Shown: in pieces, positions 2,335 to 16,248 of the stretch
Numbering within the stretch: position 1 is the stretch's first letter
How the letters are laid out: every line of letters starts with the position of its first letter
From: a virus
Taxonomy: Duplodnaviria; Caudoviricetes
Direction: 5' to 3' (one strand)
DNA length: 25,222 nt
IMG/VR virus record: IMGVR_UViG_3300048848_000236
Coordinates: 1-25,222 of that record
The notes under the pieces: generated by a model
Seen by the model: the letters and a program-made list of their open reading frames with translations, nothing else
Told to the model about the DNA's origin: nothing
The model's database searches: none
Program-made: the position numbers and the translations under genes

Positions 2335-2458
2335 CAGCGGCACTCCTCTTCGCAATCTAGCCAGCGGCAATCGTCTACGCGTCGCTTACCAGATGGTCTG
2401 AGCCTAGCTTAACAGGTATCTGGGCATGGGCCCCGTCCGGGTTGGGCGGGGTCACACG

Positions 2459-3025
2459 ATGCACTGGAATAGATTACTGCTGTTCGCGGGCGCGCTCGTC
2501 GGGGCGACGGCAGCGCCGGCGGAGCGGATGATCGGGGCGGGCGGGGAATGCGTTCCCTTCGCCCGCAAGATGTCGGGCATAGCCATCTACGGCGATGCCT
2601 GGACCTGGTGGGGACAGGCGGCCCGTACCTACGAGCGCGGCACGAACCCTCGTATTGGAGCGGTGCTCGCGTTCAAGCCGCACGGCGCGATGACCTTGGG
2701 GCATGTGGCCGTCGTCAGCCAGTTGGTGGCACCGGGTGTGATCATGGTTACGCACGCGAACTGGTCGCGGATCGGCGGCGTTCGAGGTCAGGCAGAGCGG
2801 GACGTTACCGTCGTGGATGCGTCCGGCCGGGGCGACTGGAGCGTCGTCCGTGTCTGGTACGACGGCGAGGCAGGGCTTGGCGCCACGCGATACCCAGTTC
2901 ATGGCTTTATCTACCCACAGGCAGGCAGGCAGGCTCCGCGGGTTGAGCGGACGGCTATGCCCTCTCCCGAGCTGAGCGGATCGTCACCGGACTTCATCGG
3001 CGCGCTGATCGACGCGACCCGCTGA
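2459..3025 (+). CDS. Secreted CHAP-domain cysteine amidase/peptidase
   Basis: Signal peptide (LLLFAGALVGATAAPA), ECVPFAR catalytic Cys, GDAWTWW, GAVLAF, GHVAVV catalytic His, HANW. Confidence 0.9.
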   Translation: MHWNRLLLFAGALVGATAAPAERMIGAGGECVPFARKMSGIAIYGDAWTWWGQAARTYERGTNPRIGAVLAFKPHGAMTLGHVAVVSQLVAPGVIMVTHANWSRIGGVRGQAERDVTVVDASGRGDWSVVRVWYDGEAGLGATRYPVHGFIYPQAGRQAPRVERTAMPSPELSGSSPDFIGALIDATR

Positions 3026-3051
3026 GGCCAGCCAGCGCGGCAATCGATTTC

Positions 3052-3127
3052 CGCGGATCGGCCACCCACGGGTTGATATCGCCCGCGTACCCGACACGCA
3101 GCGCTGGCCGCGACGGAATGTTTGGGC
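3052..3127 (-). pseudogene. Frameshifted remnant of the alpA 3' end
   Basis: Reads QTFRRGQRCV//YAGDINPWVADPR versus QTVRLGERCVGWYEADINAWVADPR in alpA (4532-4729); the DNA similarity is visible directly. Confidence 0.85.
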
Positions 3128-3166
3128 AAGCCTTCTTACTCCGGTGATCAGGCGTCGTGCAGGTAG

Positions 3167-3241
3167 CGGCGGTGCGAGCTGGCGCAGGACTGGGCAGAGC
3201 TGATCACCGACGGGCTGATGCCGGGGGCTAGCCTGATTGGA
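3167..3241 (+). pseudogene. Remnant of the integrase 3' end
   Basis: Reads RRCELAQDWAELITDGLMPGASLIG versus RRRELAQEWAELITVGLVPASALVG at the end of int. Confidence 0.85.
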
Positions 3242-3311
3242 CTCGTTCACCGCTCATTGACGTAGAGCCACGGTGGTTGGAATCGCTCGGGCTCACAGGT
3301 ACTTGGGGTTC

Positions 3312-4202
3312 ATGCCTGAGAACGTCATGCTGCCTAGCCGCTTCACGATCGAGTCGCTCTACCCGTTCGTTCGCTCGATCGTCCGCGCAGACGGCTATCC
3401 GGCGAGCGACCGGTTCACGTTTGACTTCCGCTATCTAACATTCATCAACGGCCAAGGTCTTACTGTGTTCATGAACACGATGGACTGGCTGCACCACCTC
3501 GGGGTGCCGTGCTACTACGTGAACCATGACACAAACCTGTCAGACGGCCTTCGATATTTGGACTCGTGTGGGTTCTTTGAACGCTATTTGGGCGCGAAGA
3601 TTAACCCCTTTGCAACTGTGCGCTCTACCACGCTTCCATGCACCAGGGTTCCGATTGTTGATGGACATGAATGGCTGGAGTTCCGATTCGAACCCTGGAT
3701 GGCTGCGACATTGGGGGTGGATGGTCGGGCTCTCTATAGCTTGAGAGCTTGCGTGAAGGAGATTTTCAACAACATCAGAGATCATTCAACCCGCGATATC
3801 GGGTGTATCCATTTGCAGCATTACCCACGGCTACGAACGGTGAACATCACCGTGTCGGATTTCGGCCGTGGAATACCGAATACGATACGAGAGAAGTTCG
3901 GGCCCATGGCGGATGCGATAGCGATCCTGAAAGCCACCGAAGAGGGCGTGACAGCTCAGACAACACGACGAAATCGTGGAGTGGGGCTAAATTATCTCAC
4001 TGAGACGGTCGTAGCGAACGGAGGCGCCGTAACGATTTACTCATTTGGTGGTGCTCTCTTATGCACCGGTGATTCGGCTGGAAAGCCTCAGCGCCACCCT
4101 TGGGCAGGCAACGGGAGCTACCCTGGGACGTTAGTGGACATTATGCTGAAGATCGATACATTCGTTGGGGACGAGCTCGTACGGGAGAATCTAGAATGGT
4201 GA
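3312..4202 (+). CDS. STAS-like domain + GHKL/HATPase (anti-sigma-factor kinase-like) protein
   Basis: N-terminal FDF..L.FI...GL and YL...GFF; N-box EIFNNIRDHS, G1 box VSDFGRGIP, G2 box NRGVGL, GTLV; lower GC than its flanks. Confidence 0.85.
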   Translation: MPENVMLPSRFTIESLYPFVRSIVRADGYPASDRFTFDFRYLTFINGQGLTVFMNTMDWLHHLGVPCYYVNHDTNLSDGLRYLDSCGFFERYLGAKINPFATVRSTTLPCTRVPIVDGHEWLEFRFEPWMAATLGVDGRALYSLRACVKEIFNNIRDHSTRDIGCIHLQHYPRLRTVNITVSDFGRGIPNTIREKFGPMADAIAILKATEEGVTAQTTRRNRGVGLNYLTETVVANGGAVTIYSFGGALLCTGDSAGKPQRHPWAGNGSYPGTLVDIMLKIDTFVGDELVRENLEW

Positions 4203-4489
4203 TCACCGCTCTTGATCATGTCCCACACTGCTACAGCGCTGAAGATGGGGAGAAGCTGGCGTCCGTTCTTCGCCGTCAGCTTGCTTGCTCGCAACAGGTT
4301 ATCCTGTCCCTAGCGGGCGTCGCGGATGTACCTTCCTCATTCGTCAATGCCGCGTTTGTGGGCCTTCTGGACGAGTTTCCCTATCCCGTTATCCGCTCGA
4401 AGTTGAAGGTTATCGACAGCAATCCGCAGATCAACGGCATGATCCGGCGCTGCTTCGATAACGCACTGAAAATTGTCGAGGCAGCCTGA
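4196..4489 (+). CDS. STAS-like (DUF4325-type) protein
   Basis: DGEKL...VILSLAGVADVPSSFVNAAFVGL, with a candidate phosphoacceptor Ser; overlaps the kinase stop. Confidence 0.8.
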   Translation: MVITALDHVPHCYSAEDGEKLASVLRRQLACSQQVILSLAGVADVPSSFVNAAFVGLLDEFPYPVIRSKLKVIDSNPQINGMIRRCFDNALKIVEAA

Positions 4490-4531
4490 GCATCTGTTTG
4501 GGAGCAGCCGCAGCTCTTCAAGGGCTGGATC

Positions 4532-4729
4532 TCATCGCGGATCCGCCACCCACGCGTTGATATCGGCCTCGTACCAGCCGACGCAGCGCTCCCCGAGGCG
4601 AACGGTCTGAGGAAACGTGCCCGCCTCCATCTTCCGATAGATGGTCGCCCGATGCAGGTTGCCGCATCGACGGCGAACGTCCGGGAGGCGCAGGATATTG
4701 TCGTGCGCGCGAGCGACTATCGTGCTCAT
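4532..4729 (-). CDS. alpA: AlpA-family regulator / excisionase
   Basis: ILRLPDVRRRCG.L.RATIYRKM.AGTFP..VRLG.R.VGW...DI.AW; convergent with int. Confidence 0.93.
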   Translation of the reverse strand: MSTIVARAHDNILRLPDVRRRCGNLHRATIYRKMEAGTFPQTVRLGERCVGWYEADINAWVADPR

Positions 4730-5142
4730 GATCCGCATCTCCGTAGACGACCTTGAGGATCGTACGCCGGCCACCGAGCGCCCGCCCCTGACCGGATGAT
4801 TTCGCAGCTGAGCGACTTGCCGCTGGGCAGCGTGCACCAGCCGGCTGTTCGATCGCCGAGCGCGTTTCCATGCGAGACGCACTGCAGCCGCTTGTTGAGC
4901 ACCAGCGCCAGGGTGAGCGCCCGAGCCCGCTTTGGATCTCGGATGCCGCAGGGCTGATTGGACCGACAGGTGCCGTTTGCTTCCACGGCGCCGACACCCT
5001 GCACGCGGATTTTGATCCGCCGTCCGTCGTCCATGCGGCAGTAGATCGGGCCGTCAGCATCGTAGGCGCCGGTCACCTTGCAGGCGAACGGCTGTCCCGC
5101 AGGCACGACATAGGCGGCAGCGAGAATGAGCAGCCCGATCAT
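4726..5142 (-). CDS. Secreted thermonuclease (SNase-like) family protein
   Basis: Hydrophobic N-terminus; DADG, IRVQGVGA.E, RT.GWC, LSCEIIRSG.G.RW; ATGA coupling at both ends. Confidence 0.72.
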   Translation of the reverse strand: MIGLLILAAAYVVPAGQPFACKVTGAYDADGPIYCRMDDGRRIKIRVQGVGAVEANGTCRSNQPCGIRDPKRARALTLALVLNKRLQCVSHGNALGDRTAGWCTLPSGKSLSCEIIRSGAGARWPAYDPQGRLRRCGS

Positions 5143-5774
5143 AACTGCACCCAATCGCAATCACTTGCGTTCACAGCAGTGGCATGCACACCGTCAACGA
5201 TCTCCAGGACTTGCTCGTAGAGATGCTCAGCGGCGGCGCTGGCGGGAAACGAGAACGATGGCGCGAGCTTATCGGCGACGTGGAGCTTCTGCCGCCCGCC
5301 ACGAACTCTCGATCGAACTGGCGAGTGAAGCCAATGGGCACGAACGCTGAGGTAGACATCATCGATATGGCTGCGGGCATTGCCCGGCAGGAGCACCCTC
5401 ACGTGCGCCCGTAGGGTGCATTTGGGTCGGGATGCGCTGCTGCACGCAGCCTTGCGCCCTACCGCGCGGAGGAGCAGCATCCGGGCAGGCAAACCAGCGG
5501 GACAGAGCGACATGGAGAGGGAAGCCCGATCAGCCGAAGAGATTCGGCTTGAGCTCGATCGAATGGTCAGGAGCTTCGCGCTCGACGGAGAAGCAAAAGA
5601 CATCGAGTTCCAGCGGCCGACTCTGTGCTTTCGTGCCGATGGTGGCGACCACCATAATTGGGACGTGGACGTCTTCTGCTCCGAAAGCTCAGACGATATT
5701 GCCCGGCGTGCGGTGGAGGCTGTGTCTGACAAGTGGGACATGGCCGACGAGTAAGGTTCGCTTTCGTCCGTCAT
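5139..5774 (-). CDS. Putative bridge ORF (211 aa), antisense to two cargo genes
   Basis: Starts at an ATGA overlap (5771-5774) and stops at an ATGA overlap with the nuclease start (5139-5142); no recognisable domain. Confidence 0.45.
   Translation of the reverse strand: MTDESEPYSSAMSHLSDTASTARRAISSELSEQKTSTSQLWWSPPSARKHRVGRWNSMSFASPSSAKLLTIRSSSSRISSADRASLSMSLCPAGLPARMLLLRAVGRKAACSSASRPKCTLRAHVRVLLPGNARSHIDDVYLSVRAHWLHSPVRSRVRGGRQKLHVADKLAPSFSFPASAAAEHLYEQVLEIVDGVHATAVNASDCDWVQL
5184..5414 (+). CDS. Small counter-oriented hypothetical protein (76 aa)
   Basis: Protein-like amphipathic sequence; shares NWxV-x9-DI-x3-A with 5512-5754. Confidence 0.7.
   Translation: MHTVNDLQDLLVEMLSGGAGGKRERWRELIGDVELLPPATNSRSNWRVKPMGTNAEVDIIDMAAGIARQEHPHVRP
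5512..5754 (+). CDS. Small counter-oriented acidic hypothetical protein (80 aa)
   Basis: MEREARSAEEI...NWDV; possible promoter TTGCGC-17-CAGCAT at 5452-5480. Confidence 0.7.
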   Translation: MEREARSAEEIRLELDRMVRSFALDGEAKDIEFQRPTLCFRADGGDHHNWDVDVFCSESSDDIARRAVEAVSDKWDMADE

Positions 5775-6058
5775 GCCGCCTGCCGCTCCGCCGCCGGCTT
5801 GAGCTTCACGTGCCCACGCTCCTGCAAGATCAGGAACGTCGACTCCGGAAAGATCCCGAGCAGCCGACGAGCCTCTGCCTCCGCGTCTTCGAAGCTCGGG
5901 TGGCGGAAGCGCGGGGCTCCAGCGCTGCCGGGCCGGCGCATCCCTTGCCCCGCTTTGCGGTAGAGCAGCCAATTGCCGCGGAACGCCTTCGTCTCCGGCG
6001 AGAGCCCGGCAGTGGGTCGATCGTTCATCGCGCTTCCTTCCAAGAGGTTGAGGCTCAT
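5771..6058 (-). CDS. Phage hypothetical protein
   Basis: RFRHPSFEDAEAEARRL...F.IL; ATGA-coupled at 6058, with an alternative start at 6028 preceded by GGAAGGAAG. Confidence 0.75.
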   Translation of the reverse strand: MSLNLLEGSAMNDRPTAGLSPETKAFRGNWLLYRKAGQGMRRPGSAGAPRFRHPSFEDAEAEARRLLGIFPESTFLILQERGHVKLKPAAERQAA

Positions 6059-6336
6059 GCTGCAGCCATCCTGAGCGGGACGACGGTGCTGATGCGCTCG
6101 CCACCGTCGGGATCTGAGCCGGCAACGTCCGGCGCCCAGGCTCCGCAGAAGCGGCTCTCGTGCGTCTGAGGCCACTCGGCGGCGAAACGGACACCCGGCA
6201 GCGGCACCGGTGGGTTGACCTGACACGATCCTAGGTCGGGCCGCTGGGCGGCATCGCGAGTGGCGGCCGCGATTACCGGCATCTGCCGACACCACCAGGC
6301 GCAGGTCTCGCAGCGGCGGGGGCGAAGCTCGATCAT
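6055..6336 (-). CDS. Cys-rich putative metal-binding phage protein
   Basis: CETCAWW...GSCQVNPP...WP......CGAW; ATGA coupling at both ends. Confidence 0.8.
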   Translation of the reverse strand: MIELRPRRCETCAWWCRQMPVIAAATRDAAQRPDLGSCQVNPPVPLPGVRFAAEWPQTHESRFCGAWAPDVAGSDPDGGERISTVVPLRMAAA

Positions 6337-6893
6337 AGCGACACCGCCGCTGATGCTGCGAGTGCCCAGGTGCCGGCGTTCGGTTCGGCACGACGCGGCG
6401 ATCGCCTAGGACGCCGCAGCGGAGACCGGCGGAGCTCTGCCCGGCGCGACTGATCAAGCTGCTTGCGCGCCTCCCGCTCTTCCGGGGTCAAGTACCGGAC
6501 GTATTTCTCGGCGTGGCATCGGGACGTGCCCAGCGCCTCGTTGATGTCACACCACCGTACACCGGCTTTGATCATCTCGAGCGCAGCTGCACGCCGCTGC
6601 AGGAGTGTCGCTGCTCGCTCCGGCGAATGGCCGGGCATTCCGTCGGCCCTCTTGCCTTTGTCGTAGGCATCGGCGCAGCCATACTGGTGATAGCGATCCC
6701 GCCCGCACCCGCACTTGGGATGGGTTCCCGCCAGCTTCATCAGGAGCAAGAACGGCGCAGCTTCGACGCGCACGCGATCTGGGCGAAGATCGAGCAGCAG
6801 GGCGATGTCGCGGAAGCTCTCAGCGACCGGTAGTAGCTCGACCAGCATTTCGAGCTTGTCAGGCGGCAGATGCCCTGGGCGGTTCGCACTCAT
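6333..6893 (-). CDS. Hypothetical protein with a CGCGR..H...C motif and an HTH-like segment
   Basis: CGCGRDRYHQYGC; LEMIKAGVRWCDINEALG; coupled at both ends. Confidence 0.75.
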   Translation of the reverse strand: MSANRPGHLPPDKLEMLVELLPVAESFRDIALLLDLRPDRVRVEAAPFLLLMKLAGTHPKCGCGRDRYHQYGCADAYDKGKRADGMPGHSPERAATLLQRRAAALEMIKAGVRWCDINEALGTSRCHAEKYVRYLTPEEREARKQLDQSRRAELRRSPLRRPRRSPRRAEPNAGTWALAASAAVSL

Positions 6894-8146
6894 TTTACGA
6901 TCCTCAGCGCTGGAGTGGAGTTCGGCTCATCCTCGTCCGGCGTGAGCATCAAGCTCTTCATCTCAGGCGCCCCGACGTTGGGGAGCGGGACAAGGCCCTT
7001 CGCGCTTCCGCCACGTGCTTGGGTGAGTACGTCGCCAATCCTGACCTTGAGCGGCCTTCGCGAGATAGCTGGTCCGAGCCCAAGGAACTCGCCCCGGGCG
7101 AGATCCCGGATCTGCTCGGCTTGCTGCGGCTTCAAGCCAAGCAAGTCGCCCGCGCGGGCGATATCGATGTCGAGGAATGTCCGACCCATGAGGAAGTTGG
7201 ACGCCTCGGCGGCAACGTTCTTGTGGAGCTTCGCCAGCCGCTGCGTGGCCATTACCCCGGCCAGCCCGCGCTTGCGGCCGCGGCACATCAGATTGGTCAT
7301 AGCGAGCAGCGAGGCCTTCCGCACTTCGCGATCCTCACCGTTGTCCGCAGACGGCGCGAACAGCTGCGCCTCGTCGACAAACACGAGGGCAGGGTACCAG
7401 TGTTCGCGAGGCGCATCGAACAAGCCCTCGAGGAAGGCCGCCGTACGATCCATCTGCTGTTCGGCGTCGAGCTCTTCCAAGTTGAGAACGACGGAGCCTC
7501 GATGCTGCCGCACCCGAGCGCCGATGGCGGCCATCTTGTCGCGGTCGTAAGCATCGGCATCGATAACGGTGTGCCCGAAGGTTTCGGCAAGGCTGACAAA
7601 GTCACCTTCGGGATCGATGATCACCTGCTGGATGATGCCGGTGCTCTCCTCGATGACCTTTCGCAGCAAATGGCTTTTGCCGCTCCCGCTGTTCCCCTGA
7701 ACGAGCAGCCGGGTGGTCAGGAGCTCCTCAAGGTCGATCAGAATCTTCCGTCCGGCAGCATCGGTTCCGATCTCGAGAGCATTGTCGCCGGCCGGCTGGA
7801 CGCTCGGCTCGCTAAAAGCAGCAGCCGGCGGAGCTACTGCCTGCGGCCGCGTCGCCGGCGCCGCAGCGACAATCTCTCGAGCCGTAGAACCTGGGGATGG
7901 TAGCGCGGACCCTAATGCGACTGGCTTGGCGCGGCGGACCGGCTCGCGCGCGGCCGCTACCATTGCCTCCGGCTGGGCCGAAGAGTTCTCTCGTAGACCG
8001 ACCTCGCGGCGCCAATGGACGATGTTGTTGACCGAGACGCCGAGGCCGAGGCCGATCTCCGTATCGCTCTGACCGGCATCATAGAGCGCCTGAGCGAGTG
8101 CCTTCTGGATGTCGCCGAAGAAGGTGCGGGGCTGGTGATACATCAC
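6890..8146 (-). CDS. N-terminal HTH fused to a HerA/FtsK-superfamily (DUF87-like) ATPase
   Basis: Walker A GNSGSGKS, IIDPEGDF, Walker B VFVDEAQ, RGRKRGL, ATQR; N-terminal LYDAGQSDTEIG..LGVS...I.HWR. Confidence 0.9.
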   Translation of the reverse strand: MMYHQPRTFFGDIQKALAQALYDAGQSDTEIGLGLGVSVNNIVHWRREVGLRENSSAQPEAMVAAAREPVRRAKPVALGSALPSPGSTAREIVAAAPATRPQAVAPPAAAFSEPSVQPAGDNALEIGTDAAGRKILIDLEELLTTRLLVQGNSGSGKSHLLRKVIEESTGIIQQVIIDPEGDFVSLAETFGHTVIDADAYDRDKMAAIGARVRQHRGSVVLNLEELDAEQQMDRTAAFLEGLFDAPREHWYPALVFVDEAQLFAPSADNGEDREVRKASLLAMTNLMCRGRKRGLAGVMATQRLAKLHKNVAAEASNFLMGRTFLDIDIARAGDLLGLKPQQAEQIRDLARGEFLGLGPAISRRPLKVRIGDVLTQARGGSAKGLVPLPNVGAPEMKSLMLTPDEDEPNSTPALRIVK

Positions 8147-9291
8147 TGCGCCTCCGCTTCCGCATATGCAGCCTTCAGAGCGGTAAGCATCTGATCGTTG
8201 CGCTCCCAGCCGTTCGCCGCGCCAGCCACGGCGGCCTTCCAGCCGGTCATGCCGCTATCGGCGAGCACCGCGCACATCAGCTCGGGATCGATGGGATCAC
8301 CCGCTTTGATGCGCTCCGCAATCAGCGTTCCGAGGCTGTCGAAGATCGACGATGCGCTTGAAAGGATCTGCCCCTCGAAAGCTCGAGCGATGAGCGTCAG
8401 CGCCGTGAGCGCCACCTCCCGGCCGTGGACGCGCATCACCCGCATGATTGCGCCGATGAAGATCACCTCGCCCTGCTTGAGCATCTGCCAAGCCTGATTG
8501 CGGCCGACGCGCAGCCCGGCCTCAGCGACCACCTCGTTGACCGCGATCGCGTTCTCGTCGCCCGCGACAATCGCCGCATGGAAGTCGTCCAGCCGCTGCA
8601 TCGGCCGGCGCGCCCGGTTGGCCTGGACGAAGAGCTCGGCTTCGGCCTCCGGTCCTTGGAAGTCATAGGTAGCGCAAGGGATGAAGGGAATGTCGTCTCG
8701 CAGGCGTGCTCCCTCAACGCGATGTTGGCCGTCAATGACGAAGAGACCCTCGGCCCGGCGGGAGACGATCAAGGGGACACAGAGGCGCCAATCCCAGTCG
8801 ATGGCGATCTTGCGAATGAGCTTCTGGGAGGCGCCATTCTCGATGGAGCGCTGGTAAGTGTCGTCCACCTTGAGGTCGGCTGGCGCATGCCACTCGATTA
8901 CGGGCGGCTTCCCGATCACCGGCCGGGTGCGAACCGGTTCGCGTGCGGCGGGCTTCGAAACCGACGCTACGGCGACGGCCGGGCGCGGTGCCTGCTGTTT
9001 CTGGACTGCGGCTGCAATCACCGGATGGCTGCTGCCGGCGGCGGCAAGCTTCTCCTGCACCTGCCTGGGCGGGCAGGCGAACACCCGGGCATCAAACTCG
9101 AAGATGGCAAAGCCACGTTCAACGCGGACGAGACCATCTCCAGCCTCGATCTCGAAGCTGCCATCGTCGGCGAGCTCGCAGGTCGTCATTCGCTCGACAA
9201 TCCAGTCGGGCGGCTCCTTGCCCGGAGCACAGATCCATATGCGTGACGGGGCGGAACTGGTGGGAGGAGTAGCAAATGCGGTCGCCATCAC
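8143..9291 (-). CDS. ParB/Srx-like (DUF6551-type) protein
   Basis: LKVDDTYQR, IAIDWDW, FVIDGQHR, EAELF..AN; AGGAGG RBS before GTG 9291 / ATG 9288. Confidence 0.85.
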   Translation of the reverse strand: MMATAFATPPTSSAPSRIWICAPGKEPPDWIVERMTTCELADDGSFEIEAGDGLVRVERGFAIFEFDARVFACPPRQVQEKLAAAGSSHPVIAAAVQKQQAPRPAVAVASVSKPAAREPVRTRPVIGKPPVIEWHAPADLKVDDTYQRSIENGASQKLIRKIAIDWDWRLCVPLIVSRRAEGLFVIDGQHRVEGARLRDDIPFIPCATYDFQGPEAEAELFVQANRARRPMQRLDDFHAAIVAGDENAIAVNEVVAEAGLRVGRNQAWQMLKQGEVIFIGAIMRVMRVHGREVALTALTLIARAFEGQILSSASSIFDSLGTLIAERIKAGDPIDPELMCAVLADSGMTGWKAAVAGAANGWERNDQMLTALKAAYAEAEAQ

Positions 9292-9418: not shown

Positions 9419-9461
9419 ATCATGCTATAATCGCATAAGTTGGTCAATCCGCTTTTCGGAT
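9419..9461 (-). promoter_or_regulatory. PL-like promoter with two operator-like palindromes
   Basis: Minus strand TTGACC (9447-9442), 17 bp, CATGAT (9424-9419); ATGCT-N5-CGCAT at 9422-9436 and ATCCG-N5-CGGAT at 9447-9461. Confidence 0.6.
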
Positions 9462-10097
9462 CACCGATGCTTGAGGAGGTGTCCGCTCATCGGCTACATG
9501 CTCGAGAAGCACATCCGTTCGCCGAAGGATGGCTTCCACTCGCCCAATGATGGCAGGTGCGGCACGACCTAAGGGAATGACTTTAGGTTCAACCTCGCCG
9601 GAGACGCTGAGTAGTCTCGCAGGCCCATCTGCGTAGCGAAAAAACTCCGGGGTTTTACCCTTCTCTACAGCGAGATAAAGATCCCCGCTAAACAGATCAG
9701 TCTCTTCTGGATCAACTACGACCCAGTTAGACCCGCGAAGGAAATTATGCGGATCCATGTTGTTGTACTCAACAGCAAACATGCTGTCACCGCCAATCTC
9801 TAAAGGTAGCTCGAAAGCCTGAAAGTCCGACTTACCGACCTCTTTCTCCCATTCCGCGGCTCGTTCTAGCGCGATGAATGGCACTGGCTTGTTGGCGTTT
9901 ATAGCGAACCCTAACGCATCCGAGATCAGGTTCCACTCGTGTACCTTGATCTGCCGGGCGCCTCTAAGAATGTTCGAAACTGCCGATTGATGCAGGCCTA
10001 TGATATCGGCCAGCTCACGCTGGCTCATGCCAATCTCCTGCATCCGAGTGCGAAGGATCTCCAACTGGGTGCTGACATGCTCGACCATGATCCGCAT
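9444..10097 (-). CDS. CI-like repressor: XRE HTH + degenerate S24-like C-terminal domain
   Basis: MSQRELADIIGLHQSAVSNILRGAR; C-terminal VVVDP, GDLY, PARL, IIGRV; divergent from cro. Start may be 10088. Confidence 0.9.
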   Translation of the reverse strand: MRIMVEHVSTQLEILRTRMQEIGMSQRELADIIGLHQSAVSNILRGARQIKVHEWNLISDALGFAINANKPVPFIALERAAEWEKEVGKSDFQAFELPLEIGGDSMFAVEYNNMDPHNFLRGSNWVVVDPEETDLFSGDLYLAVEKGKTPEFFRYADGPARLLSVSGEVEPKVIPLGRAAPAIIGRVEAILRRTDVLLEHVADERTPPQASVIRKAD

Positions 10098-10112: not shown

Positions 10113-10141
10113 TTGCTAGTCTCATACGGAAATCGGATAAT
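10113..10141 (+). promoter_or_regulatory. PR-like promoter with operator
   Basis: TTGCTA (10113-18), 17 bp, GATAAT (10136-41); ATACG-N5-CGGAT at 10124-10138. Confidence 0.65.
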
Positions 10142-10164: not shown

Positions 10165-10404
10165 GTGTCGGTCGCAATTTCGATCCTTGAAGCACTCGGC
10201 GGCGTCACCACGGTCGCGCGGCTTACCGGAACGCCGATGCAGACAGTGCACTCTTGGAAGCAGAAGGACTCGATCCCCCAGTGGCGGCGGAGAGCACTTC
10301 TCGAACTAGCAATCCGCGCGCGTCATCAGATGGATGCCGACCAGCTCTCATACCTAGCAGGCGGCCGGAAGCCGCGTGGGCGGAACGGCTCGCAGCCAGC
10401 ATGA
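10165..10404 (+). CDS. Cro-like HTH regulator
   Basis: LEALGG.T.VARLTG....TVHSWK....IP.WR; GAGGAGGA RBS; divergent from the CI-like gene. Confidence 0.88.
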   Translation: MSVAISILEALGGVTTVARLTGTPMQTVHSWKQKDSIPQWRRRALLELAIRARHQMDADQLSYLAGGRKPRGRNGSQPA

Positions 10405-10922
10405 GCATGCTCTCCCGCCTGGGCCGGCTGCTCCGCGTGCGACGCGAGCGGATGTTCGTGGATCTGCCGCGGCGAGATCACGGATGGCCACCTGTCGAAA
10501 TTGTCGGAAAGCCGGACCGAACGGAGTTTCCGGCTGGCGCTGTTATTTGGAGCGGCCTTTCCGTGACCGACGACGGCCTCCCAGGTTCAACCGTGCGGAT
10601 TGTGCACAGTGAGTTCGATCCCGCCGCAGTCGTGCAGCCATTTGTCGACCTCCCGGATGGTACGCGGATTACCCGAGCCGGCAATCGTGTTGCGGCCAAG
10701 GACGGTAGAGGGTTCGAAGAGCTCGAAGCTCCCGCCGTCGTAGCGCAGCTTGCAGTTTTCGAAGGTGCAGCCCCGGAACGAGTTCCCGCCGAGGTCGACC
10801 GCCTCCTCTTTGAAGTGCCGATCGACGAAGTCCACCATTCACCCTCTTCAGTCGCTGTTCGCACCACGACTGTAGCCGAAGGGGAGGGGCCGACAAGCCT
10901 CTCCCCCGAGGGCGGACGATGA
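10401..10922 (+). CDS. Putative bridge ORF A
   Basis: ATGA overlaps at both ends; antisense to 10587-10838. Confidence 0.45.
   Translation: MSMLSRLGRLLRVRRERMFVDLPRRDHGWPPVEIVGKPDRTEFPAGAVIWSGLSVTDDGLPGSTVRIVHSEFDPAAVVQPFVDLPDGTRITRAGNRVAAKDGRGFEELEAPAVVAQLAVFEGAAPERVPAEVDRLLFEVPIDEVHHSPSSVAVRTTTVAEGEGPTSLSPEGGR
10587..10838 (-). CDS. Counter-oriented 83-aa protein with pentapeptide/beta-helix-like repeats
   Basis: HFKEEAVDLGGNSFRGCTFENCKLRYDGG; GAAGAGGG RBS; promoter TTGTCG-16-TACAGT (10896-10869). Confidence 0.75.
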   Translation of the reverse strand: MVDFVDRHFKEEAVDLGGNSFRGCTFENCKLRYDGGSFELFEPSTVLGRNTIAGSGNPRTIREVDKWLHDCGGIELTVHNPHG

Positions 10923-10975
10923 GCATGCTCTCCCGTCGGGGCTGGCTGCCCGAAATACAGGGCGCCGCGCGATGA
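10919..10975 (+). CDS. Putative bridge mini-ORF B (18 aa)
   Basis: MSMLSRRGWLPEIQGAAR; ATGA overlaps at both ends. Confidence 0.4.
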   Translation: MSMLSRRGWLPEIQGAAR

Positions 10976-11352
10976 TTGCCTACAGCCTCGCCTTGAGCTT
11001 ATCGAACATGCGGTGGAACTCCGCGACCGTCGCGGTCTCATCGCTTCCTGTCGAAAGCAGATCGCTGATATTGCGCTCCATCGCGCCCTTGATGTGGTCG
11101 ATGTCTGCCGCGTCGAGGGCGCCTTTCGATTTGAGCACCTCGAGGAGCGCCCAAAAGCCGCTCTTGGTGATTTGGTCCGCCATCCATCTTTTCCTTCGTG
11201 TTGACTTCGACCCCAGCAGGATACGCCGGACCCGGGCGTGCGCAAGCGCTCCCCGCGAGGGTGACATTGGTGCTCGCGAGAAGTTCGATCCGCGTCGCGC
11301 CCGACAGCCGGCTACCCGAGTTTTCGCCGGAGATCCGCGAAGTGCTTCGTGA
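10972..11352 (+). CDS. Putative bridge ORF C
   Basis: ATGA start and GTGA end; antisense to 10980-11183. Confidence 0.4.
   Translation: MIAYSLALSLSNMRWNSATVAVSSLPVESRSLILRSIAPLMWSMSAASRAPFDLSTSRSAQKPLLVIWSAIHLFLRVDFDPSRIRRTRACASAPREGDIGAREKFDPRRARQPATRVFAGDPRSAS
10980..11183 (-). CDS. Counter-oriented small helical protein (67 aa)
   Basis: MADQITKSGFWALLEVLKSKGALDAADID; GAAGGA RBS; promoter TTGCGC-16-TATCCT (11245-11218). Confidence 0.75.
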   Translation of the reverse strand: MADQITKSGFWALLEVLKSKGALDAADIDHIKGAMERNISDLLSTGSDETATVAEFHRMFDKLKARL

Positions 11353-11569
11353 GCGAAGCAGTGAGCTGCGCCTGGATGTCGGGCCTGGCACCGGAATCCT
11401 CGATCGACCGCAGCATGAACTCGCTGATCCGGTCGATGGCCTTCGCATCGAGTACACCAGCTGCAGCCATCTCGTTACAAAGGGCGACGGTCCCCATGAT
11501 GGCAGTCGATGCCAGCCCGGCGAGCCCAGCGATGGCAACGTTTCGTTCGCTTTCGTCGGGATCGTCCAA
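11312..11569 (-). CDS. Counter-oriented small helical protein (85 aa)
   Basis: TTG start after GGAGGGGAAGG; ALCNEMAAAGVLDAKAIDRI resembles 10980-11183. Confidence 0.7.
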   Translation of the reverse strand: MDDPDESERNVAIAGLAGLASTAIMGTVALCNEMAAAGVLDAKAIDRISEFMLRSIEDSGARPDIQAQLTASLTKHFADLRRKLG

Positions 11570-11651
11570 CGTCCTTCCCCTCCGCGCTGCTGTGGCGGGC
11601 ATTGTGTTACGCCTAAGCGGCCCAAGCACAAGCACGTCCGGTCAGACGTGA
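11349..11651 (+). CDS. Putative bridge ORF D
   Basis: GTGA overlaps at both ends; antisense to 11312-11569. Confidence 0.4.
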   Translation: MSEAVSCAWMSGLAPESSIDRSMNSLIRSMAFASSTPAAAISLQRATVPMMAVDASPASPAMATFRSLSSGSSNVLPLRAAVAGIVLRLSGPSTSTSGQT

Positions 11652-12232
11652 GACCGCAGCTGCTGCTACGCTTCCTCGGCTTCGAGCTCGATGCAGTCGG
11701 CCAAGGACAGGAGTTCCTGCGCCGCCTTTGCGTCGAGGGCCACGTGCCGCTCAGCGGAAGCTCGCTGAAGCTGCACTGCGATATCGGCCACGCTCGCCCG
11801 GGTGATGGTGCCGCCGCGGTGGAGCCCGCGAACAATCGCCTGGAGAGCCAGGCGTGTGGTGTTGTCCAATCTAACCTCCGAGATTCCCCGACCCGCATCG
11901 TAGCGGGACCCTCGAGCTCGTCTACCGATCCCCGCCGAATTGAAGCGATCTCCAGTAAGCGCTGGTTGTTGGCCCGCTCAGTCATTGCTCGGCACCGACT
12001 CCCGGATCGCATCAAGCATGGTGACCGCTTGATGATAGGGCCTCTCGCTCAGCACGGCGTCAGTCCCATCTTCGATCTGGTCGAGGAAGTAGTGGACGAG
12101 ACAGTTCGGGATCCGGGCTGCTCGCATCGTGTCAGCCAATGCCCCCACAATAATGCCCCACATGGCCATCGTCATCTCGCCGCGTCGGCGCGCTCGCTTG
12201 TCTTTTCCCATGCTGCGGTAGGTAGCCGGTGA
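11648..12232 (+). CDS. Putative bridge ORF E
   Basis: GTGA start; its stop overlaps the cII-like GTG; antisense to two small genes. Confidence 0.4.
   Translation: MRPQLLLRFLGFELDAVGQGQEFLRRLCVEGHVPLSGSSLKLHCDIGHARPGDGAAAVEPANNRLESQACGVVQSNLRDSPTRIVAGPSSSSTDPRRIEAISSKRWLLARSVIARHRLPDRIKHGDRLMIGPLAQHGVSPIFDLVEEVVDETVRDPGCSHRVSQCPHNNAPHGHRHLAASARSLVFSHAAVGSR
11666..11869 (-). CDS. Counter-oriented small helical protein (67 aa)
   Basis: TTG start after GGAGGT; promoter TAGACG-16-TACGAT (11924-11897). Confidence 0.72.
   Translation of the reverse strand: MDNTTRLALQAIVRGLHRGGTITRASVADIAVQLQRASAERHVALDAKAAQELLSLADCIELEAEEA
11978..12211 (-). CDS. Counter-oriented small protein (65-77 aa)
   Basis: Protein-like WGIIVGALADTMRAARIPN...FLDQIE; start uncertain (12211 or 12175). 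Confidence 0.6.
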   Translation of the reverse strand: MGKDKRARRRGEMTMAMWGIIVGALADTMRAARIPNCLVHYFLDQIEDGTDAVLSERPYHQAVTMLDAIRESVPSND

Positions 12233-12696
12233 GCGCGCCGCACATCCACGGCACGCGCCGTACCTTTTCCGCGTCGAAAGCGGTCGAGGCGCAGGGCAAC
12301 GTGCTCAGCGACATCAAGTCGGACGACGAGATCACCTTCAAGGATATGGGGCGTGTGCTCGGCAAGTCCGAGGATCGGGCCGCGATCTACGCCTCCGGTC
12401 TGTCCGCTATCGATCTGCCGACCTTTCTTGCCGGCTGCCACGAGTGGAAGGGCCGGTTCGCGGATCCGCTGCTGTCGCTCGTGGGAGGACGATGGGCCGA
12501 CGCCGGGGCGATCTGCACCGGCGACGAGAAGGCAGCGCTAACGCTCGCGAACCTTCTGCCAGCTGTGATCGCGATTGAAGCCGATGGCTTGACCGAGACG
12601 ACCGAGCTGGCACCGCACGAAACCCTGATCCGCCGCGTCCACGCGCTCACGTCGATGTGGCTGGAGATGATCGCCCAGGACCGGGCCAGCCGATGA
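12229..12696 (+). CDS. CII-like phage regulator (positional call)
   Basis: HTH-like TFKDMGRVLGKSEDRAAIY; lies between cro and the replication genes. Confidence 0.7.
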   Translation: MSAPHIHGTRRTFSASKAVEAQGNVLSDIKSDDEITFKDMGRVLGKSEDRAAIYASGLSAIDLPTFLAGCHEWKGRFADPLLSLVGGRWADAGAICTGDEKAALTLANLLPAVIAIEADGLTETTELAPHETLIRRVHALTSMWLEMIAQDRASR

Positions 12697-14093
12697 ACTT
12701 GGCTGTGCCAATCCGGATCCCGACCGACGTTCCAGCTTCCCTGATGAGCGTTGACAGCGAAGCCGTAATTCTCGCCGCGCTCCTGCGCGACAACACGCGA
12801 GTGGACTCGGTAGCCGACATCCTGGCCGTAGAGGACTTCTCCGAAGACCTGTTCGGCCGCCTCTACTCGACGATCATCGATCTAGTGGCGCAGCGCCGTG
12901 CTGCGAACGCGATGATCGTGGCAGCGCTCTTCCAGGGTGATGCAGCATTCGAATCCGTCGGCGGCCGCGGGTTCCTGATCGACATGGGCGGGAGCTTGGT
13001 GTCGCTGCTCGATGTAACCGGGATCGCGCGGCACCTGCGCGACCTTGCCGTCCGTCGGCGACTGGTCGCACGCATGGCGGAGACCTCGGCGGCGCTTGCC
13101 GACCTCAACCGGCCCATCGACGTGATTATCGCTGAGTACGACGCGGCGGCGAGTGGAGCGGTCGAGCGAACCGACCCTAACCCTTTCAGGGCCGGCGCCG
13201 ACTGCGTCGACGAAGTGGTCGCGAGCTTCGATCGTCCTGTGGTGGGGGTATCCAGTGGCGGTGGCGTTACCGGGATCGACCGCCTGATCGGGGTGATCCG
13301 ACCCGGGTGGCTAGGGATCGTCGCCGGACGCCCCGGGATGGGCAAGACAGCCGCGTTGGTCAGCTACCTGCGCGGGACCGCGGGGCGGGGACACACCTCG
13401 CTGTTCGCGAGCCTGGAAATGACCTGGGAAACGCTCAGCATGCGTCTTGTGGCGGATCACTGCCACGCGATCGGGCAGCCGGTCCCCTTTGACGCAATGA
13501 TGGGTGGCAGGCTCTCCCACGAGCACAAACGCATCATCTGCCGGGCCCGGGACGACATCGCCGCTCTGCCGTTCAAGATCATCGACAAGCGTTGCCACAC
13601 GCTGGGCCAGCTTCGCCGGGCGGTCCGTCGCCGCAAGCGCGAGCTGGCTGTGGCCGGCCGCAAGCTCGAGCTCGTCGTCGTCGACTACCTTCAGCTGCTC
13701 ATGCCCGATCGTCCCGCGAAGTCCGAGTACGACGCGGTGTCCGAGGTGAGCAGGGAGCTGAAGCTGCTCGCGGGTGACGAAGAGGTGGCGGTGATCGCAC
13801 TCTCGCAGCTGAGCCGAAACGTCGAGCAGCGAGCGGACCACCGGCCAGTCCTCGCTGACCTGCGCAGCAGCGGCCAGATCGAGCAGGACGCCGACTTCGT
13901 CGTCTTCCTTCTAAGCGAGGAATACTACCTGCGGAAGGCAGAGCCCGAGGCAGACACCGCCGAGCACGACGCTTGGCGAAGTAAACTCCACAAGGTTGAG
14001 AGCTCGCTCGAGTTCATCTGCGCCAAGCATCGGCACGGCCGCGAGGGTAACTTCTACGGGCGGTTCTACCGCGATTTTCAGGCCGTCCGATGA
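12693..14093 (+). CDS. dnaB: DnaB-like replicative helicase
   Basis: GRPGMGKT, SLEM, VVDYLQL, LSQLSR, DLRSSGQIEQDAD, KHRHG. Confidence 0.96.
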   Translation: MNLAVPIRIPTDVPASLMSVDSEAVILAALLRDNTRVDSVADILAVEDFSEDLFGRLYSTIIDLVAQRRAANAMIVAALFQGDAAFESVGGRGFLIDMGGSLVSLLDVTGIARHLRDLAVRRRLVARMAETSAALADLNRPIDVIIAEYDAAASGAVERTDPNPFRAGADCVDEVVASFDRPVVGVSSGGGVTGIDRLIGVIRPGWLGIVAGRPGMGKTAALVSYLRGTAGRGHTSLFASLEMTWETLSMRLVADHCHAIGQPVPFDAMMGGRLSHEHKRIICRARDDIAALPFKIIDKRCHTLGQLRRAVRRRKRELAVAGRKLELVVVDYLQLLMPDRPAKSEYDAVSEVSRELKLLAGDEEVAVIALSQLSRNVEQRADHRPVLADLRSSGQIEQDADFVVFLLSEEYYLRKAEPEADTAEHDAWRSKLHKVESSLEFICAKHRHGREGNFYGRFYRDFQAVR

Positions 14094-14125
14094 AACGACG
14101 GCACACCCTAGGAGCGACACGATGA
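14090..14125 (+). CDS. Putative 11-aa bridge mini-ORF
   Basis: MKRRHTLGATR; ATGA overlaps with both the dnaB stop and the initiator start. Confidence 0.35.
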   Translation: MKRRHTLGATR

Positions 14126-14907
14126 GCGGCTGGTACCGGATGCACCGCGGCTGGATGGATCACCCTGTATTCGGCGGAGAGGAGTTCAGCCGGCGCGACG
14201 CCTTCCAGTGGCTGATCCAGGAAGCCGCTTTCAAACCGACCCGAGTGCACGTTCCGGGCGGCAGTCTAGAGCTTCAACGGGGGCAGCTGGGCTACTCTCT
14301 CAGGTACCTTGCGAGGGCCTGGAAGTGGTCAGAACCGAGGGTGCGTCGGTTTCTAAAAGCGACGCAGGAGGCGAAAATTATCGACGCATCCACCGACGCG
14401 GGACAGACGGTCATAACGATTTGTAATTACGACAAATATCAGCTCACGCAGGAGGTCACCGACGCAGCGTCCGACGCCGATGTGACGCAGCTGCGAAGCG
14501 TCAGCGACGCAAAGAAGAAAGAAGGAAAAGAAAAGAAAGAAGAAGAGGGGGCGCGCGGGCGCGCCAGCGACGGCAAGGCTTACGGTTTCGAAGGGACAGT
14601 CGTGCGCCTCACGGCAGCCCATCTCGATCGATGGCGCCAGACCTACCACGGCATCCCGGACATGATCGCCGAGCTGACCAGCATCGACGCATGGTTCGCC
14701 GGGCAGGACGAAGCGGCGAAGAAGGATTGGTTTCAGCGAACGAACCGAATGCTCAACCGCGCTCACCAGCGGGCGGTCGCCGAGAAGCCAGCGGCGCCAG
14801 CAAGCAACCTCGTCCACTTCGATGCTGCGATCCGGCGCATGGAGCGCTTCGAACAGCAGGAGCGGGAGCGTCAAGAACGCGAGCGAACGGCCGGTGAGCG
14901 GGCGTGA
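14122..14907 (+). CDS. Phage replication initiator (O-like, winged HTH)
   Basis: GWYRMHRGWMDHPVF, RGQ...S.RYLARAW.WS...VRRFL, ITICNYDKYQ; AGGAG RBS. Confidence 0.88.
   Translation: MSGWYRMHRGWMDHPVFGGEEFSRRDAFQWLIQEAAFKPTRVHVPGGSLELQRGQLGYSLRYLARAWKWSEPRVRRFLKATQEAKIIDASTDAGQTVITICNYDKYQLTQEVTDAASDADVTQLRSVSDAKKKEGKEKKEEEGARGRASDGKAYGFEGTVVRLTAAHLDRWRQTYHGIPDMIAELTSIDAWFAGQDEAAKKDWFQRTNRMLNRAHQRAVAEKPAAPASNLVHFDAAIRRMERFEQQERERQERERTAGERA
14361..14545 (+). repeat. Iteron-like GACGC repeats plus an A-rich tract: putative phage origin
   Basis: GACGC at 14361, 14383, 14395, 14461, 14473, 14484 and 14506, followed by a purine/A-rich run. Confidence 0.55.
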
Positions 14908-15506
14908 TCAACGCTTATCCTGGGGCACCAGTGGAACCGGCGGCATCGGCGCAAACGGTAGCTCATTCCCGGAGCTGCTCAACCCACATCAGCGCTCGAT
15001 GGATCGTCAACCATGGTCCGGCGGCGAGGATGGCCATCCCCGCTGCGACGGCGACGATCAGGGCTGGCGCGTGCGAACTTCCGCGCTTCGGATGCTCAAC
15101 CGTCCCGGGACGTCCGGGCCCCGGCAGATCGTCAGGTGATAGTTCTCGGAGGAACTCGCACCCGTACCCGTCGGGGTTTTGGCGAACGACACGGGCGGCG
15201 CTCTGCGGAACACCGATGATCCGGATCTGCAGGACCGACCCGAGCGCCAGCACCGCCCGGGTTTCCACCAGGCAACCAGTTGTCGAAAGGTCTTTCACAA
15301 CGATGTCGTACGTGTGGGCTTCCGAACCGCGGATCGTCCCGCCCGCCTCGATCGACGTTCGGGGTGCACGTAGGAGCTCCTCAGCTCCCTCTGTCACCAG
15401 CTTGGCGGCAATGCCCATGTGTCCGTCCCTGATCCGTGAGCATGCGCCGTACAGCTTCGTCCTTAACAGGGCCTACATCTGGCACAGCAGGGTGACGGCT
15501 TCGTGA
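14904..15506 (+). CDS. Putative bridge ORF F
   Basis: GTGA overlaps at both ends; antisense to the PilZ gene. Confidence 0.4.
   Translation: MINAYPGAPVEPAASAQTVAHSRSCSTHISARWIVNHGPAARMAIPAATATIRAGACELPRFGCSTVPGRPGPGRSSGDSSRRNSHPYPSGFWRTTRAALCGTPMIRICRTDPSASTARVSTRQPVVERSFTTMSYVWASEPRIVPPASIDVRGARRSSSAPSVTSLAAMPMCPSLIREHAPYSFVLNRAYIWHSRVTAS
14963..15418 (-). CDS. PilZ-domain protein with a C-terminal hydrophobic/TM segment
   Basis: LRAPR, DLSTTG (DxSxxG), ARVVR...YGCEF; ALIVAVAAGMAILAAGPWL. Confidence 0.85.
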   Translation of the reverse strand: MGIAAKLVTEGAEELLRAPRTSIEAGGTIRGSEAHTYDIVVKDLSTTGCLVETRAVLALGSVLQIRIIGVPQSAARVVRQNPDGYGCEFLRELSPDDLPGPGRPGTVEHPKRGSSHAPALIVAVAAGMAILAAGPWLTIHRALMWVEQLRE

Positions 15507-15577
15507 AGCGGTTTGGTATCGGGACGACAGACCTGCGCGCCTCCATTTGGCGCTGCAGCCCGGCAGAGCAGGCATGA
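15503..15577 (+). CDS. Putative bridge mini-ORF G (24 aa)
   Basis: GTG 15503 to TGA 15577; ATGA overlap with the nusG-like start. Confidence 0.35.
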   Translation: MKRFGIGTTDLRASIWRCSPAEQA

Positions 15578-16248
15578 TGACGAAGGACATCAAAGCACGA
15601 GACGGCTGGTGCATTCTCAGGACCAGCGGCCAGAAAACGCTGCCGCTTGTCCGGTCGCTGAGGAGTGCCGGCTTCGATGTCTGGACGCCGGTGCGCACCT
15701 TGAAGCGTCCGGCACCCGGACACCGCCGCCGGCTGCACCTCGGCTTGCGCAAGGTGATGGTCGAGGTCGATACCGCGATCGTGCCGAGCATCGTGTTCGC
15801 CCGCGCGCACCATCTCGACGATCTCGCCCGCGCCGCTGCCGATCCGTTCAGCCAGCATCCGGCCTTCTCGATCTTTCATTGGGGCAGCCGCGTCCCGCTG
15901 ATCGATGACAGCCAGATCGCTGGGCTTCGTGCTGCCGAGGACGAGGCGACCGCGGCGATCAACGTGGAGCGCGATGCTGAAAGCAAGAAGGCGGCGCGGG
16001 AGGAGCGGGCCAGCCGCCTTGGGTCCGAGCGCGCGCGGCGCAAGGCGTTGCGCCAAGAGCGGAAGACGTTCGAGCCCGGCGTCGACGTGACGATCGACGA
16101 CATGCCGGCGCTGGCAGGCATGGTCGGCCAGGTGGTGAGAGGGCAGGGCGCCTCCGCGCAGATCCGGTTCGGTGGCGTGCTGACGATGACGGTCGAGGCT
16201 TGGCGTGTGCGCCCGATCCACGACACTTTGTCTGCCCTGGCAGGGTAA
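15574..16248 (+). CDS. Phage NusG/RfaH-family late antiterminator
   Basis: WCILRT...L...L..AGFDVWTP, P..VFA, KOW-like FEPG.DV.I....LAGMVGQV; sits at the Q position. Confidence 0.85.
   Translation: MMTKDIKARDGWCILRTSGQKTLPLVRSLRSAGFDVWTPVRTLKRPAPGHRRRLHLGLRKVMVEVDTAIVPSIVFARAHHLDDLARAAADPFSQHPAFSIFHWGSRVPLIDDSQIAGLRAAEDEATAAINVERDAESKKAAREERASRLGSERARRKALRQERKTFEPGVDVTIDDMPALAGMVGQVVRGQGASAQIRFGGVLTMTVEAWRVRPIHDTLSALAG

Follow-up and report, generated by a model that had tools for sequence, protein, structure and literature searches.

How can the early operon of a temperate phage be read through when protein genes run backward inside it? The question is raised by a 25,222-nucleotide (nt) virus record (IMGVR_UViG_3300048848_000236; the window, that is, the whole stretch of DNA analyzed), which shows a lambdoid temperate layout with integrase-like and repressor genes. 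Its order is integrase-like genes, leftward operon, cI-like repressor, cro-like gene, replication genes, antiterminator-like gene and late-type open reading frames (ORFs); related loci are carried by genomes of Sphingomonas, the host genus of the relatives. In the rightward early operon (10165-16248), six protein-like genes lie on the minus strand and are crossed on the operon strand by a chain of reading frames coupled stop to start. The continuity of such frames across backward genes is very probably under selection. A first-pass annotation of the window had proposed that selection acts on this continuity and not on the bridge proteins, and slot walks, stop depletion, ratios of nonsynonymous to synonymous substitution (dN/dS), randomized chains and held-out loci all speak for it.

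The coupled chain in the window

Starting at the GTG at 10165 and reading each frame up to its first stop yields 13 ORFs linked by 12 ATGA or GTGA junctions and ending with a TAA at 16248. The first-pass annotation had located the junctions, all TGA after A or G, at 10401, 10919, 10972, 11349, 11648, 12229, 12693, 14090, 14122, 14904, 15503 and 15574, and each was reproduced at exactly that position; the tight stop–start overlap of a termination-reinitiation coupled operon is thus present at 12/12 junctions. The links measure, in chain order, 79, 173, 18, 126, 100, 194, 155, 466, 11, 261, 200, 24 and 224 amino acids (aa). RTGA makes up a fraction of 0.31 of all stop triplets in the window on the plus strand and 0.30 on the minus strand.

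Five links are real genes, all on the plus strand. The chain starts with the cro-like gene (10165-10404; NF046037 carph-isopro domain, E 2.7e-12; PHROG DNA-binding matches), which has a strong Shine-Dalgarno sequence (SD). The conserved 155-aa gene at the CII position (12229-12696; phrog_16695, E 1.4e-28) has a putative CII function, for which there is a weak lead (Phage_CP76, on 12% of one cluster). It is followed by a DnaB-like helicase gene (12693-14093; phrog_19, E 2.2e-71) and a replication initiator or helicase-loader-like gene (14122-14907; phrog_2514, E 4.5e-19), and the chain ends at the Q position with an antiterminator-like gene (15574-16248; phrog_6386, E 4.5e-11; UpxY family at E 0.0008, far below cutoff), for whose protein a search of solved structures gave no result.

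The remaining eight links are not protein-like, and the five long ones lie over the six minus-strand genes, as the first-pass annotation had described and as family scans and codon scores bear out. A codon model was trained on the relatives' long ORFs. None of the eight links exceeds 0.03 per codon under it; the four large core genes reach 0.12–0.18 and the six minus-strand genes 0.06–0.25, and the cro-like gene is itself low (0.016). The six non-gene links of at least 24 aa have no match in PHROGs or Pfam (the 18- and 11-codon links being too short to scan), and the five long bridges have none in NCBIfam.

Bridge 1 (10401-10922, 173 codons) runs in register over the variable cargo gene c1 (10587-10838, minus strand, 83 aa; codon score 0.18; phrog_26297, E 0.0011), and no homologue was found for it among proteins of 95–303 aa. 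After an 18-codon link (10919-10975), bridge 3 (10972-11352, 126 codons; -0.10 per codon) is shifted over c2 (10980-11183, minus, 67 aa, variable; 0.25 per codon), and bridge 4 (11349-11651, 100 codons), whose start junction lies inside c3, is shifted over c3 (11312-11569, minus; 85 aa from a TTG with SD or 97 aa from an upstream ATG; relatives in the loci L004 and L044). Bridge 5 (11648-12232, 194 codons) is again in register, over both c4 (11666-11869, minus, 67 aa; relatives in L001, L016 and L031) and the conserved c5 (11978-12211, minus, 77 aa). It shares 66% aa identity with its counterpart in the nearest relative, L001, while c4 and c5 keep 93% and 86%. Further down, an 11-codon link with no cargo beneath (14090-14125) is replaced by a 67-codon ORF in L001. 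Bridge 7 (14904-15506, 200 codons; -0.15 per codon) is shifted over c6, a PilZ-domain gene (14963-15418, minus, 151 aa; PF07238, E 9.6e-10, above cutoff), and the chain walk adds a 24-codon link over the upstream region of that gene (15503-15577). The in-register opposite frame of the PilZ gene contains 3 stops, and its shifted opposite frame is open in L001, L002, L005 and L023 as well, that is, in five loci with the window.

Such a chain rarely arises by chance. When synonymous codons were redrawn without changing any of the six cargo proteins, the strict chain survived in 2/4000 trials, and when the spacers were shuffled as well, in 0/4000; a chain with loose restarts survived 109/4000 and 13/4000 trials, respectively. 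The possibility that chains of this kind are common by chance, raised with the original proposal, is thus not borne out.

A second chain, overlooked in the first-pass annotation, runs through the leftward operon (4518-9291, minus strand) from a ParB-like gene to an AlpA-like gene and a 5-codon tail, with 8 RTGA junctions from 9291 down to 4535. It includes a bridge of 211 codons (5774-5139, minus; -0.10 per codon) over two plus-strand genes. A ParB-like/DUF6551 gene and a HerA-like ATPase gene (6890-9291, minus) come first in this operon, where lambda has N.

Frame continuity among related loci

For comparison, 64 loci were gathered by protein search with the CII-position protein, and cro-like genes were found in 61 of the 65 sequences (window included) by an iterative hidden Markov model search seeded with 17 chain-start ORFs picked by eye. 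The 61 sequences fall into 51 clusters by the slot between cro and the CII-position gene, 50 of them with a real slot; L001, L051, L057 and L058 (no cro match), ten duplicate slots and L061 (no slot) were left out of these counts. Elsewhere, backward genes under the coding-score cut-offs and loci without a called terminal regulator or AlpA-like gene were set aside. A strict walk accepted ATGA, GTGA and TTGA junctions alone, and a loose walk allowed a restart anywhere between 8 nt ahead of the first stop base and 11 nt past it.

The strict walk reaches the CII-position start in 26/50 clusters, against 5.7 expected with the cargo proteins and both ends fixed, and the loose walk closes 47/50, against 13.0; with redrawing limited to the synonymous codons of the cargo, the expectations are 14.6 (strict) and 29.9 (loose) of 50. 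The three unbridged slots require gaps of 9–13 nt. Among the 155 junctions on the cheapest paths, 124 are 4-nt and 9 are 1-nt overlaps. The first-pass picture of a chain made of NTGA overlaps throughout thus holds strictly in about half of the clusters, and the others use other tight overlaps. Eight extra metagenome loci were held out, of which seven were examined, with L066 (no cro in range) and L073 (partial match) dropped; all six with cro in range are bridged, four of them strictly, one being crossed by a single 516-codon frame over several backward ORFs. In L001, whose CII-position protein is 92% identical, an unrelated 79-aa gene stands in place of c1–c3 and the chain is unbroken up to the antiterminator despite the replaced cargo. 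Additionally, in L002 and L005, checked separately, a 423-codon frame forms the bridge. The sense chain therefore stays coupled when the slot holds other cargo, as had been predicted, and link length and frame vary between close relatives, from a few to 516 codons. An assembly artefact was rejected, since the design recurs in dozens of independent assemblies.

The loci also contain an internal control. Backward genes were grouped into three early sets (the cro–CII slot, the stretch before the terminal regulator and the leftward operon) and two control sets (after the regulator and beyond the leftward operon), and opposite-strand stops were compared with a null matched gene by gene for GC content at third codon positions (GC3). 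A stop-free opposite frame is present over 52/55, 25/25 and 24/25 early genes (41.1, 14.4 and 18.5 expected) and over 23/39 and 7/23 control genes (18.6 and 5.3 expected). The in-register frame is open over 96/105 early backward genes; by composition alone, an open antisense frame is expected over 74/105 (~70%). The first-pass annotation had stressed that bridges use both in-register and shifted antisense frames; this is so in the window, and as a rule the relatives use the in-register frame, the shifted frames of the window being exceptional.

Stop depletion measured against codon-shuffled controls, a check proposed at the outset, came out as predicted: early cargo has 14 in-register stops against 71.6 expected, and control backward genes 102 against 108.2. 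With one value per family, the figures are 9.6 vs. 34.2 for early cargo (40 families, P ~1e-6) and 91.5 vs. 91.7 for controls (52 families). The codons TTA, CTA and TCA are read as stops on the opposite strand, and these are the most depleted three of the 30 A/T-ending codons in early cargo (ratios 0.12, 0.16 and 0.26).

The continuity ends with the early operons. The junction walk closes 14/17 intervals from the CII-position gene to the regulator (2.3 expected) and 10/13 leftward intervals (1.3), and 1/23 after the regulator (0.6). From cro to the regulator (4.1–7.7 kb), the largest untranslated gap that cannot be avoided measures 2.5 nt in the median, and in 26/38 loci it does not exceed 8 nt; after the regulator the median is 36 nt, and 1/26 stays within 8 nt. 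At the end of the early operon, the NusG-like gene is replaced in L006, L008, L017, L020 and others by the families f13, f29, f33, f90 and f105, which may be unrecognized late regulators.

Selection on the encoded proteins points to the cargo strand. In five early cargo families, dN/dS is 0.07–0.25 on the cargo strand and 1.1–2.6 in the in-register operon frame (for c5, 0.25 on its own strand and 1.08 in the bridge frame), and the same pattern separates the CII-position gene from its meaningless antisense frame (0.18 vs. 1.81). The cargo proteins are under purifying selection and the in-register bridges are not, as the proposal had implied for the two strands; the shifted frame cannot be judged in this way. 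The related suggestion that bridges are a source of de novo genes met with no evidence for or against and was dropped as a reading.

Possible reasons for the continuity

The reason that we favor, with a probability of roughly 60%, is avoidance of Rho by ribosomes kept on the early mRNA. Untranslated RNA exposes rut sites and causes Rho polarity, and Rho also suppresses antisense transcription, according to the part of the source available (PMC12360218); coupling, in turn, is described as requiring overlaps or very short gaps (PMC10666635, available in part). Real genes sit on the opposite strand of the early operons, and by selection one operon-strand frame is kept open over each and tied stop to start to the next. 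In the mechanism proposed, a single pR-like transcript would extend from cro to the antiterminator-position gene, and ribosomes would terminate and reinitiate at each overlap and stay behind RNA polymerase, which would keep Rho from loading on the C-rich antisense stretch. The ribosome relay would thus replace N-type antitermination, and past the terminal regulator a new promoter or protein antitermination would make bridging needless. The variable cro–CII cargo likely comes and goes by recombination at a shared promoter-hairpin cassette, and incoming cargo would be kept only where the sense relay closes.

Several features are consistent with Rho avoidance. The operon strand over the slot has more C than G in 45/49 loci (core genes, 35/171), and a backward gene is therefore likely a Rho target. 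SD pairing is stronger at internal bridge starts than at other NTGA sites of the slot (-4.4 vs. -1.8 kcal/mol, P 4e-4). The first-pass statement that the window has no lambda-N-like gene stands in that none was recognized, with no N-family match among the scanned ORFs; short, diverged N proteins could escape such a scan. A boxA-like motif has 10 scattered matches in 51 loci, and no conserved boxA was recognized. A wider generalization, which seems to us evenly balanced between right and wrong, is that an unbroken ribosome relay serves early antitermination in those temperate phages that lack the N-type system, the opposite strand thus becoming a gene slot in which cassette-swapped genes are filtered for a stop-free, re-coupled frame.

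On the other hand, a number of observations weigh against selected continuity or the role given to Rho. The walk fails in 3/50 slots and in 3/17 and 3/13 intervals, and in 5/38 loci the stretch from cro to the terminal regulator retains an unavoidable gap of more than 20 nt, 74 nt at most. Control open frames lie slightly above expectation (30/62 vs. 23.9), and ATA (0.36), TCT, TAT and GAT are also reduced in early cargo, less strongly than the three stop-forming codons; expression or composition may account for some of the codon signal. The slots share ancestry through the c5 family, and the regulator families f13, f29, f33, f90 and f105 were placed by position, without an informative family match. 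The low dN/dS of the shifted frame echoes the cargo, and constraint on shifted bridges is possible. Additionally, the transcript unit is assumed by analogy with lambda, and some internal links are probably real small genes that inflate the SD result. In 85% of the strict-chain loci, the CII-position gene is provided with an SD of its own and therefore need not depend on the relay.

That same SD also bears on a rather unlikely alternative, in which translation as such, or RNA stability, is what the relay is selected for, and not protection against Rho: downstream genes would need handed-on ribosomes, or ribosome cover would block pairing with cargo transcripts and cutting by RNase III or E. All sequence tests fit this alternative equally well, the junctions are the tight overlaps that reinitiation needs, and several junctions of the window have a weak SD (-2.5 to -4.4); a ribosome shield for RNA has also been proposed for the reverse ORFs of narnaviruses (PMC8316113, in the part available). 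The good SD of the CII-position gene in most loci argues against a need for handed-on ribosomes, and bridging stops at the antiterminator-position gene, as a termination problem predicts.

A regulatory switch is improbable. Transcripts of the cargo or of the c5 unit would pair with junctions, block reinitiation, trigger Rho and favor lysogeny, in the manner of CI RNA and P4 eta. In almost all of its 34 clusters, c5 stands head to head with the CII-position gene, 17 nt away from the start of the latter; this placement would suit such pairing, as would junction 11349 inside c3, and P4 offers a precedent (PMC10111431, as far as the available text goes). Yet unrelated variable cargo and the leftward operon are bridged too, and the window and six relatives gave no Rfam match except one tRNA, so that neither C4 nor another known antisense immunity RNA (CI, C4), as in the P4/P1 icd system, was found there.

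More improbable still is a reading of the bridges as true overlapping genes whose products function. Pseudomonas phage Fc02 offers a parallel: its gene 10 lies opposite olg1, and each of the two excludes phages when expressed, according to the available part of the report (PMC9936078). Bridge 1 begins with 22 codons that lie over no cargo; compared by eye with L001, they show 7 differences, 5 of them synonymous, and they may represent a stub left of a real small gene or peptide. Against functional products stand the in-register dN/dS values, with purifying selection absent from one of the two strands in the in-register bridges of the five families, the change of link length and frame between close relatives, the negative or near-zero codon scores and the lack of any family or homologue.

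Finally, a by-product of high GC3, by which antisense frames are often open, ATGA starts common and chains unselected, was rejected: composition does predict open frames over about 70% of these short genes, and extreme GC3 yields pseudo-ambigrammatic viruses in the available part of one account (PMC13262655), but the GC3-matched null fits the control genes and not the early cargo, chains exceed the fixed-end nulls about 4- to 8-fold, and cargo GC3 is mostly 0.6–0.9, which is not extreme.

Cargo, cassette and known systems

The cargo of the cro–CII slot comprises 18 families. The c5 family is called in 34/50 slot clusters, where its position is fixed in all but one, and the other 17 occur in 1–4 clusters each. 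The first-pass idea of a cargo-cassette system is therefore supported as far as different cargo in the same slot keeps the chain closed, and c5 is a fixed, not a swappable, component; a reading in which all six backward genes are swappable was rejected. The start of c5 lies 17 nt from that of the CII-position gene, and its promoter must therefore fall in or beside the first codons of the latter, the position held by pRE in lambda. Look-ups of c5 gave only 'hypothetical' look-alikes, and it is a candidate lysogeny-establishment or exclusion gene. The strongest single cases of stop avoidance are the 250-aa backward cargo genes of L006 (6776-7525, minus; phrog_9226) and L031 (~5665-6430, minus), with 0 in-register opposite stops against 4.0 and 2.4 expected. 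In L040, a backward gene pair that by eye resembles a toxin-antitoxin module (~8490-9110, minus), between the CII-position gene and the primase gene, is bridged via two 1-nt overlaps.

An element of ~83 nt precedes the variable cro–CII cargo on the cargo's own strand. First comes a GC-rich stem whose loop carries TTG or TGG, then 16 nt lead to a TATCGT-like box, behind which lie another stem and an SD; in the window, copies stand before c1 (10833-10915, minus; TTG-loop hairpin, 16 nt, -10-like TACAGT, second hairpin and SD) and before c2 (11182-11264, minus; cassette alignment and model match). Among 16 aligned copies, the TTG/TGG box and the -10-like box are 16 nt apart in 15. A two-hairpin structure hand-drawn from the same sequences has 78.8% of cells paired (61.9% shuffled) and 38 two-sided changes (14.2 shuffled), and RNAalifold recovered just 5 pairs of the first stem from the alignment. 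A model of the 16 copies has 24 matches at E<=0.05 in 884 kb (63 sources), 8 of them new; every match is on the minus strand and lies immediately upstream of the CII-position gene. The cassette has no Rfam family match. Judged from its sequence, it probably acts as a promoter. Alphaproteobacterial -10 boxes often lack the last T, in the accessible portion of one source (PMC8407463), and the weaker boxes ahead of c3 and c6 may be of this kind.

The c1 cassette is flanked by a 31-nt direct repeat (10401-10431 and 10919-10949, plus, 90% identity), each copy opening with the coupling ATGA of its junction, the second at the start of the 18-codon link. L001 has a single copy, and the repeat may be the mark of a duplication at insertion; a 19-nt pattern from the bridge-1 repeat matched the L001 contig only. 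Just upstream of the slot, the immunity module is exchanged: across loci, the Cro-like gene (10169-10404 in the window) comes from several families unrelated to one another, while c5 and the CII-position gene are retained.

Elsewhere in the window, the cI-like repressor gene (9444-10097, minus; PHROG repressor families, best E 7.7e-10) diverges from the chain, and a consensus scan gives a pR-like promoter candidate, TTGCTA-17-GATAAT (10113-10141, plus). At the left end, an integrase-like gene with an Arm DNA-binding and a MUG113/T5orf172-like domain (1-666, plus) stands in tandem with a second (603-1973, plus), which by eye looks like a full tyrosine integrase with a similar N-terminus. They are followed by a CHAP-domain gene, a low-GC HATPase-like gene and a small partner (2426-4489, plus), likely morons. 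Terminase-, portal- and head-like ORFs, judged from translations, follow the antiterminator-like gene. The CII-position gene has 0 relatives among 50,697 GenBank phage records, and therefore no cultured model phage was found there.

Should selected continuity hold, it would be a case, in DNA phages, of translation being selected for while its product is not, the same loci supplying an internal control, and a possible answer to how lambdoid phages without recognizable N traverse 4–8 kb early operons full of foreign genes. It would make transcription-translation coupling in alphaproteobacteria testable, provide a sequence-only means of mapping operon ends and a design rule for adding genes to engineered temperate phages, and imply that gene callers are liable to choose the wrong strand in bridged regions. 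If the relay serves antitermination, much early mRNA would be translated into dispensable polypeptides, many annotated 'hypothetical proteins' of such prophages would be bridges, and the junctions would offer antisense transcripts a handle for shutting the lytic operon. No description of selected relay frames across backward phage genes was found in a search by titles and starts of abstracts, most subscription papers and supplements lying outside it.

Known systems share parts of the design. Phage morons are variable accessory genes with their own promoter between conserved genes, and the likeness lies in the variable accessory genes between conserved ones; the moron concept is not known to include a selected open frame on the operon strand. 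The cassette resembles the PeSL of T4-type phages in being a repeated element (~80–100 nt there) with sigma70-like boxes and SD before variable small ORFans, and in its polyG/polyC stem overlapping the promoter (PMC2839356, PMC4122927, both in the part available). PeSL belong there to hyperplastic regions of lytic T4-like phages (PMC2839356, PMC4122927), whereas the present cassettes, known from sequence, repeat promoter-like boxes, stem-loop and SD before variable ORFans in a lambdoid temperate phage, face and oppose its early operon, lie under a bridge frame and have a second hairpin.

In phage Fc02, the antisense overlap of olg1 and gene 10 also follows right after a cro/ner-like gene of a temperate phage, and the lysogeny-strand gene has its own promoter (a predicted one here). 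In the available part of that report, both products are active in exclusion and a single pair is described, with no chain or stop-avoidance rule (PMC9936078). The lambda pR operon (J02459) has the same order (cI / cro, CII position, replication, Q position) and many 4-nt overlaps. It differs in its 118 nt between cro and cII with rutA, nutR and rutB, relies on N and has no backward genes annotated there; the smallest unavoidable gap between cro and cII is 58 nt, whereas the median here, taken over the whole early operon, is 2.5 nt.

The closest parallels concern translation as such. In satellite phage P4, coupled translation of eta (orf199), at eta/kil, prevents termination (PMC10111431, available in part), and the likeness is that a coupled ORF covers an otherwise untranslated stretch, as is also seen here. 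P4 eta, by the part of the account at hand, is one conserved gene over an immunity RNA and serves as a switch (PMC10111431), whereas here, in two operons, many unrelated frames that are indifferent to their protein lie over protein genes running backward, and each cargo has its frames built anew. Ambigrammatic narnaviruses likewise have an opposite-strand frame without stops, whose translation rather than product is proposed to count (PMC8316113), and avoidance of TTA, CTA and TCA beyond GC3 is found here too. They are eukaryotic RNA viruses with one genome-long reverse ORF, and no operon, stop–start junctions or Rho figure in the available part of that source (PMC8316113); here no reverse ORF spans a genome or segment, the open frames being confined to backward genes inside early operons. 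The phage design belongs to neither the P4 eta nor the narnavirus class.

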